Shown here piece by piece: positions 55,734 through 63,789 of a DNA stretch of 64,000 nucleotides. Made by a program: the position numbers and the translations under genes. The stretch's first letter is position 1. Every line of letters begins with the position of its first letter. The notes under the pieces were generated by a model, which searched no databases, was not told where the DNA came from, and was given only the letters and a program-made list of their open reading frames with translations. Source of the stretch: Anaerolineae bacterium (GTDB taxonomy: Bacteria; Chloroflexota; Anaerolineae; Aggregatilineales; Phototrophicaceae); the NCBI GenBank assembly GCA_016789005.1, contig JAEURA010000254.1:37837-101836 (forward strand), given 5' to 3'.

Positions 55734-58718
55734 CTAGCCGCCCGCGCCGCTGTCCGTCGGAAGCGGCGGCAGCGTGTTCGTCGGCGTCCGTGTCGGCGAT
55801 GGCGTCGGCGTGTTGGTCCGCGACGGTGTCGGCGACGGCGTATTCGACGGCGTATGCGTGGTCGTCGGCGTGTTCGACGGCGTGAAGGTCTGCGTCGGCG
55901 TTCGCGACGGCGTCCGCGACGGCGTGTTCGTCGGCGTGTTGGTGATCGTCGGCGTCCGCGACGCCGTGTTCGACGGGGTGAACGTCGGCGTATTGGTGAT
56001 CGTCGGCGTCCGCGATGGCGTATTCGTCGGCGTCCGCGATGGCGTATTGGTGATCGTCGGCGTGTTGGTCCGCGTCGGCGTATTCGACGGCGTATTGGTG
56101 ATCGTCGGCGTCCGCGATGGCGTGTTCGACGGTGTATTCGTCGGCGTATTGGTGATCGTCGGCGTGTTGGTCCGTGACGGCGTCGCCGTGATCGTCGGCG
56201 TGTTGGTCCGTGTCGGCGTCCGCGACGGCGTCCGGGTGATCGTTGGCGTGCGCGACGGCGTGATCGTCGGCGTGTTCGACGGCGTCCTCGTGATTGTTGG
56301 CGTCCGCGATGGCGTGCGCGACGGCGTCAAGGTGGTCGTCGGCGTCTGCGACGGCGTGTACGTCTGGGTCGGCGTGCGCGATGGCGTGCGCGACGGCGTC
56401 AGCGTGGTCGTCGGCGTGTTGGTCGTCGTGCTGGTCGCCGTATTCGTCGGCGTCGGCTGGACGGTCGAAACGTCGGTCACAATCGGAGTCGGGCAGGACG
56501 GCGCGTCAATGTAGAAGACACTGCCGTCGAAATCCTGCGGAAGCGATCCGAAATCGACCGCCACCGTATTGCCCGCGCCGCCACTGAAGATGAAGAAGAG
56601 CGATTCCGTCGCGCCCGGCGGGATGGTGATCACGCTGAGCCACGTCCCCTCAATCGGCGACACGCCCGATGTGGCGCTGCCGCTGGTTGTATCGGCGGCG
56701 GTATCCGGTCCCGCCCACATCTGCACGCTGCTGGAGTCGCCCGGTGCAGCGCCAAGCCCCCAGACCTGCGCCAGCGTCATCGCCGGAGCGCGTGTATCAG
56801 CAGCGGACCACTCCAGTCCGAAGCCGAGCACGGTCGCCGGGCTGAGCACACGGTTGTTGGTGATGTCGAAGCGAACGATGTCGAGATTCTGGAAGATGAC
56901 CGACGACACGCTGACCAGATCCGGTTCGCAGGCGGGCGTGCTCGTCGCCGTTGGTGTCGGTCCCGGCGTGTTGGTTGGAACCGTCACGTTGAAGACGGTC
57001 GCGCAGTCGGTCGTGCCGTTCAGGTCGTCGTAATAGAACGTCGTGCCATTGAAACCAACCTGCGGCATCACGCTCGGATTCAGCACCAGCGGAGCGTTGG
57101 CAAACTGCACCAGGAAGGCGTTCGCGCCCGGCTGGATGAGCAGGTTCGCACCCACCGCGAAGTCATACTCAGGCGTCCCGGATATCGGCGTCGGCGTCCC
57201 GGAACCAACCGTGACGATGTAGCCGACATCGGTCGGCGATGGGTTATCGGACCCAGTCCAGACGACCGAACCCGGCGTCCCCAGCCGGAACAGCTGAGTC
57301 GACAGGTCAGGGTAGCCCGCAATCGAGGGCCAGACCAGCTGAACGCGGCGAAGCTCGACGGAGTACGGCAGGCTGTTGGTCAGCGTGAAAGTGACCGTTC
57401 GGTTCACATAGTTGATGGTGCTGCCAACCGTCACGTTGCTGCACTGGAACACCGGCGTCTGCGATGGCGTCCGCGATGGCGTCACCGAAGCAGTTGTGGT
57501 CGGCGACGGGGTGTCTGTTGGAGTCGGCGAATGATTCGGCGTATCCGTATAGGTCGCCGTGTCCGTTGGGGTCGCCGTGTTGACGCCCGGAGCCGTCGGT
57601 GTTTCGTAGGAAGCATCAATCGGCTGGGGAGCGCGGAAGGCTTCATTGACAGCGATGCGCCGCGCCTGAAGCGGGACAAACGGCGCCAAGCCCAGCGGGG
57701 TCACCAGCGGATGGTTGAAGGTCACGACCACCGCGATGGTATCTCCCGCGCCACCGGCATCCCAGAAGGACACGCCTTCGTCAATCGAACCGCTGCCCTT
57801 GTAGGCGTTATCAGTCCATCCGTCCGCTTCCAGATCGCCCCCAGCGGTGGGGTATTCGCGCAGGAGGCAGACAGGTGCACGGGGATCGGTATTCGCGCCA
57901 AAACCGCCCTGGTTCAGGATAGGCGGGAAGCGGAAGCGCTGCGCATAATTGTTCGCCGACGGCTCGTTCGCCTGGCGAAGCTTTGGTCGGCTGCTGCAAA
58001 CCATCACGTCGAACCAGCCCGGTTCATCAGAGAAGCGCTGCCGATAGTATTGGGGCGGCGTCAGCGCGTCGCTGTCGTGGTCGCCCGGAAGCGGGCGATA
58101 CCAGGGATAGAACCAGGGGAGGTTCGCGAAGTCGGGATAGCTGGCGTCGAGAGTCCCAGGAACACCCACAGGCGGCAGGGGCAGCTGCTGCGGTCCAAGC
58201 GCCAAGCCGGCTGCGCCGAGACGCGCCTCATCGTAGATGGAAAGGATGCGTGCCAGGTCTTTGCGGCGATTCTGATCTTCGGTGTCGCCGGGGTCGCAGT
58301 CGTCGCCGCCATAATAGGAGGCGTACAGGCTTTCAACGCCCCCCACGAAGACTTCGATGGCGCGCGCTCCGGTATAGGGAGTCATCGTCGTCGCTGTGCC
58401 GCGCTGCGCCAGATCGACCACGATATCGCCCGTATTCTTGGCGCAGGGCACGATAGAATTCAGGTCGCCTGTGTAGACCGGATCGGTCTGATCGTACAGG
58501 CGAAGATCCAGCTGATATTTCACTTCATCGTACTGACCGGTCGCCGCCAGGCGCGCCGCCGCTCGCGCCGAGTTCTGGAGCGTCACCCAGGCTTGAAAGA
58601 TGCGTCCGAACTCGATCACGCCGAACAGCAAGATCAGCAGTATCGGCAGAGTGAGCGCAAACTCCACCAGAGTCTGCCCTCTTCGACGTGTACGTACCTC
58701 AATGACTTGTTCTGCCAT
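55734..58718 (-). CDS. tadE: Giant TadE-family pseudopilin with two repeated extracellular modules and Pro/Thr tail
   Basis: [27 protein letters not shown] prepilin motif; TadE C-terminal strands [12 protein letters not shown]; PT-rich segments. Confidence 0.85.
55737..56492 (-). repeat. Low-complexity Pro/Thr repeat region ([10 protein letters not shown])
   Basis: About 250 aa dominated by TP, TPT, NTP and SRTP units. Confidence 0.9.
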
Positions 58719-58772: not shown

Positions 58773-61616
58773 TCATCCTGACAGCCTCGTAAACATCCTC
58801 GAAGCGATTTCATGGAACACTTCGGCAAGCTCAGCGCCGCCTGAAGCGTTGAAGTAATTGCCGCAGTCCTGCTGCGGCGCGACCGGCTGGAACGTGCCAC
58901 CCGGATTCGCCGGGCTTACCGGCGTCGTCTCTTCGCAGGCGCCACGCGCGCCCCAGTCGGGCGGCGCATTGCCGATTCTGCCGCTGATCTGCGCCTGCCA
59001 GTAATCAGCATCGATCTGGAAGTTGTCGCCGACATCGGCGATGTAGCGCAGCAGCTCTTCGCCCAGATAATCCTGGCGCAGAATCTCCTGATGTGTCTTA
59101 TTCGTCCGCGGGGTCGTACCACGCATACAGGCAGCGTCACCGCCGCAGGAGACGGCGGTCCCGGCATCGTAGTTCAGCCCGAAGCCGATGGTGAAGATCG
59201 TCGGCAGAAGCTGATCCGAAAGGCGCGACGTCCCCGCATCATCGACGACCGCGCCGGGGAGATCGGACAGCCCGATCCAGTCCGCCCAGTCGCGGGCGTA
59301 GTCGTCCACGTCGTAAAACTGATAGCAGTTCAGCGGATAGTCATCCATGCGCAGCAGCGCCGGATTCACCGCCGTCGTGCCGCACTGCGTGCGGGTAGAT
59401 GGCTCCAGGTCCATGCAGTAAGGCGGAACGGTGTCGATCAGCAGTTCGCCATTGACGGCATCAGAGCCATAAGGACACACGCCATAAACGCCGTATGCTT
59501 CGTTCGGCAGCGGATAATCGGCAGGCGTATTCAGCGGGCTGTTGTTGCCCAAGGCGTTGAGCGGGTTGTTGTAGAAATTGCCGCTCACTTCGACCAGATT
59601 GTAGGGCTGCGGTTCAGACAATCCGGCATAGTCTCCGGTGCGGGTGACCGGGTCGCTCGCGCCTGCCGCACCGTCGCTCAGCAGCACCATGACCCAGACT
59701 GCGCCTTCACGGCGGGCGGTGGCATAAAGCGCATCCGCGCCGGCGCGCAGCGCTCCGCCAATATTCGTCCCTCGGCAGGAGCCGCGAAACTCATAGCTGA
59801 CGGAAGGCTTGCTGGTGGAACCAGTGTACCAGTGCGGAACTGAGTGAATGTCCGTCAGGAGCATCTGATCGTAGGGACGCGCCGAACCATCGGGCAGTGT
59901 ATCGTGCAGCGTCCAGAAGTTCCAAAGATTTGCCGAGTCGAATGGACAGGCGCCGCGCACCGGATTGTCTTTCAGATTGCCGATGAGCGTACCGTCGAGT
60001 CCATCATAGGTCTTGGGTGTGCCGTAATCGAGCAGGCTGTCCCACTGTCCGTCGTTGTCGGCGTCGTAGTAGGTGGAGTCTTCGGCGCGTACGCCAACCA
60101 TCGCGTTGAGCACGTTGTTCGCCCCGCGGCGCAGCAGCGTCGTGCCATCCGTATCGAACAGGTCGAATTCCGTCTCGATCATCGCCGACTGCAACCCATT
60201 GCCGTCCGGGTCGATGATGGTGGCAAAGCGGTCGAAGGTGACGAACGCCACACGGTCGCCGCGCAGGAAATCGAGGCGCGCCAGAAATTCCTCGGCGGCA
60301 TCGCGCGCTTCGCGGAAGGGCTGGCAGACCAGATCATCGAAGTTGAAATCGCCGTCGGGGTCGTTACAGCAGCCAAAATAATCGTACTGCGGCACGAAGC
60401 CGCTGAAGTTCTTGCTGAGCGACGGGTCATCGGCGTCTGCTGATGTTCCGCCGAACTGCTCGGCGTAGCTGGTGCCGAAATAGCCGTACAGCTCGGTGCG
60501 GAAATCCGCCTGCGCCGGTGAGCGCCCGCCGATGACGGAGTTCGGATACGCCCGGACGCGGCAGAATTCGCGCGGCTCCTCACGCCCGACCGGAGAACTC
60601 CCCGCGCCGGTGTACGCCTGCCACGTCCCCGCCGTCGCCCCCGGCTCGAACTTGACGACCGGATCGTAGATCGCCCAGCCAACGTCGTCGTCGCCATCGA
60701 CCAGGGTCCGGTCACAGTTAGCAGGATCGGCGGGAGCCGAAAGTGCCGAATAGATTGAAGAGTTCAAACCATCCACGCCACCCTGCGTGCTCAGAAGGAT
60801 CATCTCCCAGGGGTTGCACCGGCCCGGGGTGAGCGCATTGCCATCGGGATCGCTTTCGCCGCCAAAATCGTAGGCTTTGACGTAGGGCGGCATATAGCGC
60901 ACGCCCAGTCTGTCTCGACCGGCGTCACCCGTGTATTCCGGGATCATGTCCCAGTCATCGTAGGTCGTTTCATTGAGCATGGACTCCGAAACGTCGAAGA
61001 CCAGGACGACATCAATGACGGCGGTCTGCGACAGCGCCGACTCAGTCAGGGTGATCGTGTCGTAGCCCAGCAGCCGCATGAAGATGGTCGGCGCTTCGAT
61101 CTGCGCCGTCACACGCACGACTTTCAATTCATCTTCGGTGCACAATTCGCGATAGCGCCGCACATCGTCCTGGTTCGCGGCGAGGTTGGGCGTCCCGTCA
61201 GAATTGAACAGCGCCGTCCCGTCCCGGTCCAATGGCGCCTCGGTCACCGCATCGCGCGGGACCTGCTGGAAGCGGCAGGTCTCGACCAGCACGTCGGTCG
61301 GGCTTAAGCCGTACAGCTCGATGAACTCGCGCGCGGCAAGGCTGAGCTGGGCGACGCTTTGCGCTTCATCCTGGGCGATTCCATCGGTGGGAGTCTCATC
61401 GATGACGCGCCGCATCTGCCCCGCAGCCGCAACCGACGCCGCGTCGACCGCGCGCCGCATCGTGCTGTAGCGGATGAACAGCAGCGATACGTCGGTGACG
61501 ATGCCGACAAAACCAAGCAGCCCGATAAACCCAATCGCCAGCACAACGAGCGCCTGACCGGTCTGCCCTCTTCGGACAAAGTGCCTGGTTATCGCTGACA
61601 GAAAACGCTTCATCAT
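58773..61616 (-). CDS. tadG: TadG-like pseudopilin with vWA domain
   Basis: GQALVVLAIGFIGLLGFVGIVTDV prepilin motif, MIDAS DVSES, TNIGGAL, VLLSDG, FTIGFG. Confidence 0.85.
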   Translation of the reverse strand: MMKRFLSAITRHFVRRGQTGQALVVLAIGFIGLLGFVGIVTDVSLLFIRYSTMRRAVDAASVAAAGQMRRVIDETPTDGIAQDEAQSVAQLSLAAREFIELYGLSPTDVLVETCRFQQVPRDAVTEAPLDRDGTALFNSDGTPNLAANQDDVRRYRELCTEDELKVVRVTAQIEAPTIFMRLLGYDTITLTESALSQTAVIDVVLVFDVSESMLNETTYDDWDMIPEYTGDAGRDRLGVRYMPPYVKAYDFGGESDPDGNALTPGRCNPWEMILLSTQGGVDGLNSSIYSALSAPADPANCDRTLVDGDDDVGWAIYDPVVKFEPGATAGTWQAYTGAGSSPVGREEPREFCRVRAYPNSVIGGRSPAQADFRTELYGYFGTSYAEQFGGTSADADDPSLSKNFSGFVPQYDYFGCCNDPDGDFNFDDLVCQPFREARDAAEEFLARLDFLRGDRVAFVTFDRFATIIDPDGNGLQSAMIETEFDLFDTDGTTLLRRGANNVLNAMVGVRAEDSTYYDADNDGQWDSLLDYGTPKTYDGLDGTLIGNLKDNPVRGACPFDSANLWNFWTLHDTLPDGSARPYDQMLLTDIHSVPHWYTGSTSKPSVSYEFRGSCRGTNIGGALRAGADALYATARREGAVWVMVLLSDGAAGASDPVTRTGDYAGLSEPQPYNLVEVSGNFYNNPLNALGNNSPLNTPADYPLPNEAYGVYGVCPYGSDAVNGELLIDTVPPYCMDLEPSTRTQCGTTAVNPALLRMDDYPLNCYQFYDVDDYARDWADWIGLSDLPGAVVDDAGTSRLSDQLLPTIFTIGFGLNYDAGTAVSCGGDAACMRGTTPRTNKTHQEILRQDYLGEELLRYIADVGDNFQIDADYWQAQISGRIGNAPPDWGARGACEETTPVSPANPGGTFQPVAPQQDCGNYFNASGGAELAEVFHEIASRMFTRLSG

Positions 61617-61642
61617 ATCGATGCCCACTCAACTCGACTGGA

Positions 61643-62818
61643 TTACGGGTCAGGGAAAACGATGAACGGCTCGACCGCGGGAAGCGGGAACGCCGCCCAT
61701 ACGTAGATGATCATCTTGCCGTCTTCGTTGCCCACCGCAGTGAAGACGGGCGACAGCACCGGAATCTTCAGCAGCATCTCGTGTTCCCAATACATTTCGA
61801 CCAGCGAAATGCCCTGCCCCGGAATCATCGTGCGTGCGTCGTTATCGAGAATTTCGTAATTCGGAAGGTTGACCAGGTCCTCGATCCGGCGCATCGTCCA
61901 TTCCGAACCGACGCAGGCGGTTCCGGGAATCCTGTGGTTTCCGAACAGCGAAAAACCGACCTGCTTCTCGGCAGCGGCGACGCTTCCGGCAGGAACGTCG
62001 AAATCGCCTAGATCGCCGTGTTCGGTGAAGTCGTTGGAGCTGTCCAGGACCAGCGTCGCTTCGCGTTGGTCCCACTGATTGTTGTCATTGAGATCAAAGG
62101 GATCGCGCGGTTCGCGCGGCACAACGGCATAAACGCCGGGGGAAGTTTCGGCGACATCGCATTCATTAGTCTCTGCCGGGTAGCGTCCCACGACGACCAG
62201 CTGAGGGATATCACCGGCGACCGGGCGATCCACAGGGAGCCAACCGGAGAACGTGCGCGGATCGACGTTTTCCACCGCGTAGCCGGTCACAATAATGTCG
62301 TCAATATCGTTAGCCTCGTTGAGCGACAGCGGTTCCAGGGAGATCAGCATGGTGCAGATCACTTCATTGAAGAAGAGACGGTCCACCGAAGTGGTGTCGC
62401 ACGCGCCAGTACCAGCTGCCGCATCGACGGCATTCCAGCGATACCGCTCGCGGTAGGTGTCTTTTGATTTGGGTGGTATTTCCAGCGCCAGCGCATCTTC
62501 AGCGGCGGTGTACGCCATCTGGTAAGGCAGGTCCAGCTTGCTCCAGGGGACGAAGCTGAATTCACGGAACCAGGCATCGGCGATTGGCGACTGCTGGTCG
62601 ACCAGCGCGGTACCGCGGCGCGCCCCAGCGCGGGTCACATCCAGGATGGACAGGTAATTGTTGGCGAACCAGCCGATTTCAACCAGCCCGGCGAGCAGAA
62701 TGATCAACAGCGGCGTGACGAGCGCCAGCTCCACCATGCTCTGCCCCGCCTGCCGACGACCATACTCGGCGGGTGTGCCATCGAGGACCTGCAGGATTTT
62801 CTTCAGGATCGTGCGCAT
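61643..62818 (-). CDS. tadE: TadE-family pseudopilin, enlarged
   Basis: AGQSMVELALVTPLLIILLAGLVEIG, DATRVGARYG, C-terminal GMVLVELFWEHELL. Confidence 0.85.
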   Translation of the reverse strand: MRTILKKILQVLDGTPAEYGRRQAGQSMVELALVTPLLIILLAGLVEIGWFANNYLSILDVTRAGARRGTALVDQQSPIADAWFREFSFVPWSKLDLPYQMAYTAAEDALALEIPPKSKDTYRERYRWNAVDAAAGTGACDTTSVDRLFFNEVICTMLISLEPLSLNEANDIDDIIVTGYAVENVDPRTFSGWLPVDRPVAGDIPQLVVVGRYPAETNECDVAETSPGVYAVVPREPRDPFDLNDNNQWDQREATLVLDSSNDFTEHGDLGDFDVPAGSVAAAEKQVGFSLFGNHRIPGTACVGSEWTMRRIEDLVNLPNYEILDNDARTMIPGQGISLVEMYWEHEMLLKIPVLSPVFTAVGNEDGKMIIYVWAAFPLPAVEPFIVFPDP

Positions 62819-62877
62819 CACCAGTTCGCTCGTCTTGTGGAGATAAGCCGGGGAATCCTAGGGCTTCCCGCAGTTTC

Positions 62878-62952: not shown

Positions 62953-63654
62953 TCAGGCTTCGTCGTCCACCAGCACGCGCGCCTTGACCACATAGCCCCT
63001 ACCATGACGTGACTGAATGACCGCTGGACGTTCCGGGTCGTCCTCGATCTTGCGGCGGAGGTTGTGAATGTGATTGCGCACCAGCGCCGCATCGCCGACG
63101 CCTTTAGGATACTGCCACACGCCGGCAAGCAGGTCTTCCGTCGAATGCAGTTTGTGCGGGGCGCTGCACATATACTTCAGAAGGTCGAACTCGACACGGG
63201 TCAGGGTAAGTTCTCGGCTCTCCATGAATGCCCGAAACTGCGTAGGAACGATACGCAGGATCGGAACACTTTCTTCACCGTAGAGTGCCGACCGGCGGAT
63301 GTGCGCGCGGACCCGGGCGATCAGTTCGCGGGGCACGAATGGCTTGCGGATGAAATCGTCACCGCCAGAATTGAGTGCATCCACCACGTTATTGGAGGAT
63401 GTATTCCCTGTCAGGAAGATGATCGGCGTATTGGATGTCTGCGGGTGCGCCCGCAGTTTCCGGCACAGCGTGATGCCATCCATCTCTGGCATCATGGCGT
63501 CGATCACGAAAAGATCAGGCGTCTGGTCAGCAGTCTGCTCAAGCGCATCAAACCCCGAAGAGGCACGTTTTACCGTGAACCCTTCGCGGCGCAGCACAAG
63601 CTCCACCATATCCAACATCTGAATATCATCATCGACAATCATGATTTCGTACAT
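62953..63654 (-). CDS. OmpR/PhoB family response regulator
   Basis: IVDDD, IDAMMPEMDG, FLTG, KPF, LTRVEFDLL, VRNHIHNLRRKIE, GRGY. Confidence 0.95.
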   Translation of the reverse strand: MYEIMIVDDDIQMLDMVELVLRREGFTVKRASSGFDALEQTADQTPDLFVIDAMMPEMDGITLCRKLRAHPQTSNTPIIFLTGNTSSNNVVDALNSGGDDFIRKPFVPRELIARVRAHIRRSALYGEESVPILRIVPTQFRAFMESRELTLTRVEFDLLKYMCSAPHKLHSTEDLLAGVWQYPKGVGDAALVRNHIHNLRRKIEDDPERPAVIQSRHGRGYVVKARVLVDDEA

Positions 63655-63789
63655 TGTGCTACCCGACTTCGTAGTTCGAACTTGTATGAAGTATAGCTGG
63701 TCCAATGCAATTGCAGCATGGCGCTACCGTGAATAATTCATGAAATGCGCGGCGCTGAAAGGCTTCACCAGGAGGCAGTCGAAGCGCTT

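Follow-up and report, generated by a model that had tools for sequence, protein, structure and literature searches.

Why should a bacterial pilin carry two copies of an unnamed domain? The question arises from a 64,000-nucleotide stretch of an Anaerolineae genome (GenBank assembly GCA_016789005.1, contig JAEURA010000254.1, positions 37,837 to 101,836; henceforth the window, in whose own numbering positions are given below), which encodes on its minus strand a giant TadE-type prepilin of 994 amino acids (aa). An earlier look at the window, made from its letters alone (the sequence-only reading), picked out in that protein two Cys-bracketed stretches of about 146 residues and took them for a duplicated, disulfide-closed beta-sandwich, adhesin or lectin-like and possibly of an undescribed family. 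Three matters have to be settled in turn: whether the two stretches are truly copies of one domain, whether that domain is new, and what it might do on a pilin. To the first two the answer is yes, within the libraries searched; on the third, we lean towards a modular minor pilin of the Tad type whose two modules are likely the part that contacts a ligand.

Two copies of one module

Translation of the minus strand bears out the placement of the modules. Both stretches begin and end with Cys, module 1 with 147 aa (57003-57443) and module 2 with 146 aa (56493-56930), and the segments before and between them (aa 373-425 and 573-596) are rich in Pro and Thr, as had been said of the linkers. The six pairs of shared motifs that had been listed ([66 protein letters not shown]) are all found, in the same order and in matching columns of the alignment.

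A direct comparison by BLASTP aligns the last of these motifs alone (14 residues, E 0.044), as one might expect if the two stretches resembled each other by chance or through a shared Thr/Ser/Gly-rich composition. Smith-Waterman and global alignments (BLOSUM62, two gap settings), however, score 3.2 to 5.9 standard deviations above 2000 shuffles of module 2, and only 0 to 18 of the shuffles, depending on the gap cost, reach the observed score. A word-indexed search of 5.8 billion proteins brought to light four full-length homologues, 43-56% identical across the module region and all retaining the same eight Cys. When profiles of the first and second modules were built from the resulting five orthologues and compared by hhalign, they aligned over 128 of 147 columns with a probability of 96.8% and an E-value of 2.6e-10. 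Judged by these alignments, the duplication is real and no effect of composition, and since the copies are only 23-30% identical, it must also be old. Chance or a low-complexity artefact, to which we give practically no credence, is refuted by the profile comparison and the shuffles, by a Cys pair kept in 111 of 112 modules of the wider family (see below), and by the same order of strands in both modelled modules. The window's own genome holds no copies of the module beyond these two.

An autonomous beta-sandwich without a close solved relative

The beta-sandwich that had been proposed is supported by confident AlphaFold2 models, in which each module forms an autonomous all-beta domain. Residues 420-748, modelled with a 28-sequence alignment, gave a mean pLDDT (predicted local distance difference test) of 89.6 and a predicted template modelling (TM) score, pTM, of 0.68, with the strands in the same order in both modules. 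Module 1 alone, modelled with 44 aligned modules, gave a pLDDT of 95.6 and a pTM of 0.90, and shows about ten strands and one short helix. Because confidence drops between the modules (pLDDT 58-69) and pTM is 0.68 for the pair but 0.90 for the single module, the linker that joins them is predicted to be flexible.

In the model of module 1, the first Cys lies just ahead of strand 1 and the second within the last strand. The two probably form a disulfide, which would staple the first strand to the last. Conservation of terminal Cys in an exported protein is the pattern expected of a closing disulfide, and the genome encodes two VKOR and at least five DsbA-like proteins that score over the cut-off.

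Is the domain already known under another name? Neither module of the window matches anything in Pfam-A or NCBIfam at E <= 10, the TadE motif being the sole match in the whole protein. When 44 diverse modules were compared with Pfam at E <= 1, the matches were scattered and single, none recurrent, the best being to DUF4232 (E 0.015, two members); fn3, PKD, DUF11, Big and CARDB were matched by none of the 44. Two profiles of the module (A1 and A3) found nothing significant among the sequences of the PDB.

Structure comparison by Foldseek tells much the same story. The two-module model proved uninformative: owing to the flexible linker it brought up just other proteins with two sandwiches (TM-score 0.13-0.20, root-mean-square deviation 14-21 Å). 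The single module has no neighbour in PDB or BFVD at E <= 0.001. Its best matches are the archaellum stator proteins FlaG and FlaF (E 3.3e-3 to 5e-3, TM-score 0.27-0.39), followed by an archaeal type IV pilin, the Als adhesin, TasA, an ApaG-like protein and several carbohydrate-binding modules (CBMs), all with a TM-score of at most 0.42. In the two comparisons together, the neighbours also include transglutaminase barrels, arrestin, RbmA and fn3-like domains. As modelled, then, the module belongs to the broad Ig-like class of beta-sandwiches, and no solved structure is close to it. The source databases label the proteins that carry it just 'pilus assembly protein' or 'TadE family protein'. The description of the family as undescribed thus holds for Pfam-A, NCBIfam, PDB sequences, PDB folds and BFVD, none of which returned a significant match.

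A mobile domain family

The sequence-only reading had placed the module in the giant TadE protein, and a hidden Markov model built from it shows how much farther it extends. A ten-module profile (A1) was run exhaustively with HMMER against 1.84 billion proteins, to which about 15 billion had been reduced by clustering at 50% so that each cluster is represented once. It found 102 cluster representatives at E <= 1e-3, 29 of them at E <= 1e-10, most with two matched stretches; some 60% are giant TadE proteins with the module pair. On a re-scan of the family, a protein carries from one to five copies. About 63 of the 105 proteins at hand have the TadE N-terminal motif or a FNHPL(V/I)TP core; the others include fragments and other architectures, among them surface proteins with a signal peptide and single-pass membrane proteins with a TIR domain.

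The bracketing Cys are the family's most constant feature. Two Cys and no more, each no farther than 30 residues from its own end of the module, are found in 111 of 112 essentially complete modules (the sole exception is an N-terminally truncated fragment), and 28 diverse two-module sequences keep all four bracketing Cys without exception. The conservation of the columns yields the signature C...N...W...W-x-G-x-D-x-x-P-P-T...(indel-rich loop)...E-G-x-W...F...F-N-G-T...C. In module 1 of the window, its first half reads C426, N448, W463, W487-x-G-x-D491-x-x-x-P-T496 (protein numbering) and its second half, past an indel-rich loop at about 500-516, E517, F520, F539, F556-N-G-T559, C572. The module is like fn3, PKD, DUF11, Big and CARDB domains in size, in beta-sandwich class, in extracellular tandem use on Pro/Thr linkers and in the surface proteins that carry it; what sets it apart from these is the signature (in short, C...N...W...W-G-D-PPT...F...FNGT...C) and the putative terminal disulfide, both specific to the module family.

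The F-N-G-T/S before the last strand is near-invariant, and about 70% of the 112 modules have an N-x-S/T sequon there. In the window, the FNGT of module 1 (57045-57056, minus strand) is a sequon and the FDGS of module 2 (56517-56528, minus strand) is not. The motif could be a site of N-glycosylation or just a structural turn; with sequons in no more than about 70% of modules, the second is as likely as the first.

When the 112 modules are placed in a maximum-likelihood tree, the split at its root divides them into an m1 clade (24 rows) and an m2 clade (88 rows), each supported at 100/98. In TadE proteins, every first module falls in the m1 clade and every second module in the m2 clade (one row labelled automatically as a second module is really the first module of a fragment). 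The duplication is therefore older than the diversification of the family. The module pairs of some non-TadE proteins (e.g., P0011) adjoin the corresponding TadE modules in the tree, so the whole pair was evidently shuffled as a unit.

Outside pilins, the module follows a signal peptide and keeps varied company: DUF7948, SBBP propeller, DUF11, PD40, fn3, PKD, subtilase S8, beta-helix and PMP repeats, as well as a sub-threshold CBM_4_9 in one homologue. Judging from these sequences, it is clearly an extracellular building block. Three independent cluster representatives among the HMMER matches (P0065, P0068 and P0107) have one m2-type module near the N-terminus, then a predicted transmembrane helix and then a cytoplasmic TIR_2 domain. 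An N-terminal signal peptide is found in P0065 and P0107, and past the module of these two a linker of Gly, Pro and Thr can be seen or is likely; the scan of P0068 showed no N-terminal hydrophobic segment. With this arrangement, the module is the obvious candidate for the sensing part, or ectodomain, of these proteins. Homology, an independent fold and occurrence in several architectures together mark an autonomous, mobile domain family, new to the libraries searched.

One record in the family comes from an unexpected source. The 90% identity cluster of P0006 (Candidatus Flexifilum) holds an 87-aa partial record from Vibrio parahaemolyticus (WP_256424045.1, on a contig of 263 nucleotides), which is probably assembly contamination.

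The host protein and its gene cassette

The architecture of the giant TadE protein, which its orthologues share, is as follows (evidence in parentheses).

55734..58718, minus strand: giant TadE-type prepilin gene (P0001), 994 aa (open reading frame list and translation)
58551..58679, minus strand: aa 14-56, class III signal peptide followed by the hydrophobic helix of a pilin, RRRG/[24 protein letters not shown], the slash marking the predicted cleavage (Pfam TadE PF07811)
57603..58550, minus strand: N-terminal globular region, aa 57-372, with four Cys, C92, C141, C241 and C284 (conserved Cys)
57444..57602, minus strand: Pro/Thr-rich linker 1, aa 373-425 (read from the sequence)
57003..57443, minus strand: module 1, m1 type, C426-C572, 147 aa (translation, hhalign, AlphaFold2, conservation, m1 clade 100/98)
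56931..57002, minus strand: Pro/Thr-rich linker 2, aa 573-596, predicted to be flexible (low pLDDT between modules)
56493..56930, minus strand: module 2, m2 type, C597-C742, 146 aa (translation, hhalign, two-module model, m2 clade 100/98)
55737..56492, minus strand: C-terminal tail, 252 aa, rich in Pro, Thr, Ser, Arg and Asn, with [10 protein letters not shown]-like repeats and a Gly-rich tip at the end (translation)

The N-terminus is that of a TadE-like pseudopilin. PF07811 matches aa 14-56 at E 1.7e-16 (60.5 bits against a cut-off of 22.9), and the leader reads RRRG/QTLVEF: a short charged leader, Gly, and a hydrophobic helix with Glu at +5. Residues 14-32 are the sole hydrophobic segment of the protein. 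The region that follows (aa 57-372) has no match in Pfam or NCBIfam and is probably an enlarged pilin head. Its four Cys are kept in the five orthologues, it has a strongly conserved [10 protein letters not shown] motif, and FNHPL(V/I)TP is common to the family. The tail is encoded by degenerate tandem repeats (55764-56453, periods of 12 to 156 nucleotides). Its length differs between orthologues, and of the family members with about 800 aa most are too short to have so long a tail. The strand opposite the repeats contains a spurious open reading frame of 246 Gly/Val-rich aa (55774..56514).

Three partner genes lie upstream of the prepilin gene, all on the same strand.

58773..61628, minus strand: 951-aa TadG-like minor pilin with weak vWA signals (Pfam Tad PF13400, E 5.6e-4)
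61643..62821, minus strand: 392-aa TadE-type prepilin (Pfam TadE, E 8.7e-11)
62953..63705, minus strand: OmpR-type response regulator, head of the cassette (Pfam Response_reg and Trans_reg_C)

The cassette is conserved. A pattern scan based on the ten-module alignment, with one genome per species, found 12 related loci. By tblastn, all 12 have a TadG upstream of the place of the giant TadE, 11 have a TadE of the 390-aa type (the remaining locus, L004, is too short to show one), and 10 of the 10 with enough upstream flank have an OmpR regulator. The order regulator, smaller TadE (TadE390), TadG (TadG950), giant TadE holds in every locus with enough flank, and the layout of reading frames was seen in L007. 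Eleven of the loci are labelled as metagenome-assembled genomes (MAGs) of Anaerolineae, Aggregatilineales, Candidatus Flexifilum or 'Chloroflexia'. In an even sample of the phylum, with the top candidates of each genome scored, matches at E <= 1e-5 turned up in only nine of 401 genomes, belonging to 4 of 217 genera.

The twelfth locus (L014:1-16414) is from a MAG labelled Pleurocapsa minor, on a 1.02-Mb scaffold (JAHHHY010000001.1) that carries the full cassette with both modules and has a GC content of 58-62% over 16 kb. A mis-binned Chloroflexota scaffold is a likelier explanation than gene transfer.

Genes for the machinery of a Tad system are found elsewhere in the window's genome (G000): an A24 prepilin peptidase (Peptidase_A24) on contig C315, two T2SSE ATPases, one on C81 beside a gene for a T2SSF platform protein and the other on C127, and two Flp-like open reading frames of about 60 aa on C207 and C344. 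Given these genes and the VKOR and DsbA-like proteins noted above, processing of the pilin, assembly of a pilus and formation of disulfides outside the cytoplasm are all plausible.

What the modules may do

The protein has what is expected of a modular type IV pilin in the sense of PMC8179133: a pilin N-terminus, here of the TadE type, and two autonomous beta domains (pLDDT 89.6 and 95.6). The module's occurrence in proteins other than pilins shows that it is not specific to pilus biology. On balance we find it somewhat more likely than not that the protein is a modular minor pilin of a Tad system and that its two modules are likely the part that touches a ligand. According to this model, prepilin peptidase would cut after the Gly in RRRG/QTLVEF, and the helix would then enter the core of the pilus along with its two neighbours, the 392-aa TadE and the 951-aa TadG-vWA; the three would most likely make up a complex that primes the filament or forms its tip. 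Flexible Pro/Thr linkers would hold the two sandwiches out from the pilin head like beads on a string, with the Pro/Thr-rich tail of about 250 residues, probably glycosylated, behind them. Contact between the modules and their ligand would then attach cell to cell, cell to matrix or cell to polysaccharide in these filamentous, floc-forming Anaerolineae.

Several considerations weigh against this model. The entry of the protein into a pilus and binding by its modules are both inferred rather than observed directly, and the disulfide is put forward from the conservation of Cys. In fold, the module comes closest to generic Ig-like sandwiches, some of them pure spacer or stator domains. The long tail past the modules would be odd for an adhesin at the tip, and the modules could be internal spacers. 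Neither a Flp pilin nor an assembly gene adjoins the cassette, the Tad-type assembly genes being on other contigs. Finally, the adjoining TadG, with its VWA and VWA_2 signals (weak, and both under the Pfam cut-offs), could already supply adhesion.

Perhaps, then, the modules are inert Ig-like spacers that extend or stiffen the subunit or hold a glycosylated tail off the filament, binding being left to the vWA of TadG or to the tail itself. The weak vWA signals of the partner would suit this explanation, as would the generic sandwiches among the Foldseek neighbours (the transglutaminase barrels, arrestin, RbmA and the fn3-like domains) and the company that the module keeps elsewhere, fn3, PKD and DUF11 often being spacers. 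In the three TIR membrane proteins, however, the module is the only ectodomain of recognised fold, and a pure spacer there makes little sense. Nor does it explain why two subtypes are kept in a fixed order throughout the family, and the placing of an indel-rich loop next to Trp, Asp and Thr residues that are strictly conserved is more suggestive of a surface for recognition. We regard inert spacers as unlikely, though of the alternatives to a ligand-contacting pilin this is the one to be taken most seriously.

The TIR proteins also invite an extension of the modular pilin model: the module might be a recognition domain of Anaerolineae put to use twice, at a Tad pilus tip and in TIR proteins as their ectodomain, so that the same ligand would be grabbed by the one and signalled by the other. 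The ligand in question might be another filament nearby, a polymer of the matrix or a particle resembling a phage. This we offer as a speculation and consider it distinctly improbable.

A different home for the protein is suggested by the best structural matches. FlaF and FlaG are themselves pilin-like, with an N-terminal helix and a beta-sandwich, and they and the archaeal type IV pilin head the Foldseek results (soluble domains of FlaG/FlaF and the pilin, E 3e-3 to 1e-2, probability 0.92-0.97). The giant TadE protein might thus be a pilin-like component anchored in the membrane, its modules contacting wall or sheath as FlaF and FlaG do and its tail spanning the thick Chloroflexota envelope. 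Against this, the TM-scores are at most 0.39, well short of the value above 0.5 that would mark a stator fold, none of the matches reaches E <= 0.001, neither Pfam nor the PDB sequences revealed any likeness in sequence to archaeal pilins or Fla proteins, and the gene is linked to TadE and TadG, the usual set of minor pilins. A role confined to the envelope seems to us doubtful. A related reading of the same matches is historical: the module may descend from the beta-sandwich head of archaeal-type pilins and of FlaF/FlaG. An archaeal ancestry has been proposed for Tad systems, and such a descent would fit with it, though we consider this, too, improbable.

The remaining explanation is a special case of the modular pilin model, namely that the modules are true CBMs (lectins) for plant or microbial polysaccharide. 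Hints of this come from Foldseek (CBM-Cthe_0271, CBM2 and CBM3a, E 0.04-0.1, TM-score 0.22-0.37), from profile matches to cellulosomal CBMs in the PDB (E 0.76-3), from the homologue with a sub-threshold CBM_4_9, and from a report of Anaerolineae as adhesive, cellulolytic community members (PMC4877987). None of the CBM similarities, however, reaches significance, the conserved aromatic residues may just as well belong to the core, and most partner domains are not related to glycans. A lectin in the strict sense is therefore a poor bet, and 'adhesin or lectin-like', as the sequence-only reading had put it, is a description suggested by context alone. In other respects that reading was largely right, both on the structure and on the missing annotation.

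Relation to known systems

Modular minor pilins have been described for type IV pili (PMC8179133, PMC9934059). PilB and PilC of Streptococcus sanguinis carry a vWA module and a concanavalin A-like lectin module, respectively, and CofB of enterotoxigenic E. coli carries beta-repeat and beta-sandwich modules. Such pilins are proposed to sit at the tip of the pilus and to be adhesive, they would be workable even where the host lacks an outer-membrane secretin, and for many of their modules the databases offer no signature (PMC8179133, PMC9934059). Like them, the giant TadE protein has extra domains joined by linkers to a pilin moiety whose signal peptide is of class III. Its pilin moiety, however, is TadE (Tad/Flp, type IVc) whereas theirs are of type IVa or IVb, and what is grafted to it is another, unnamed family in two ancient paralogous copies, plus a tail of 250 residues. 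Moreover, the giant TadE protein is known from sequence and models.

Within the Tad world, the protein resembles TadE, TadF and TadG (PF07811, PF13400) in its TadE motif, in its linkage to a second TadE and a TadG-like protein, and in the presence of prepilin peptidase, ATPase and platform protein in its genome. Classical TadE and TadF have about 150-200 residues. The giant TadE protein has 994, with two extra domains and a tail, and differs further in its setting: with a response regulator at their head, it and its partners make up a separate cassette at a distance from the assembly genes.

FlaF, FlaG and the heads of archaeal type IV pilins (PDB 4p94, 5tuh, 6pbk, 8fk7) are the module's best structural matches and are likewise sandwiches on pilin-like helices. 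The likeness is a distant one (TM-score 0.27-0.39, E 3e-3 or worse, identity 11-15%), with no match to the module profile at the level of sequence, and the sandwich in these proteins is the head of the pilin, whereas in the giant TadE protein it is an appended repeat.

Implications

What is new here is the domain family and a Tad-type version of the modular pilin design; the principle of modular pilins was already known. Since no new principle is involved, the impact is moderate. The idea of modular pilins, so far one of type IVa and IVb pili, now takes in Tad pseudopilins, and one family is added to the pool of unannotated pilin modules predicted by PMC8179133.

Filamentous Anaerolineae are the backbone of flocs and granules in wastewater and in anaerobic digesters, and how they attach is, to our knowledge, largely unknown, since few have been cultured. 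A compact, confidently modelled domain now marks a conserved minor-pilin cassette headed by a regulator, and it provides a concrete handle on the question: a signature in the form of a hidden Markov model, domain boundaries for expression, and a candidate adhesive tip. The reuse of the module as the putative ectodomain of TIR proteins offers, in addition, a lead for the study of bacterial surface sensing.

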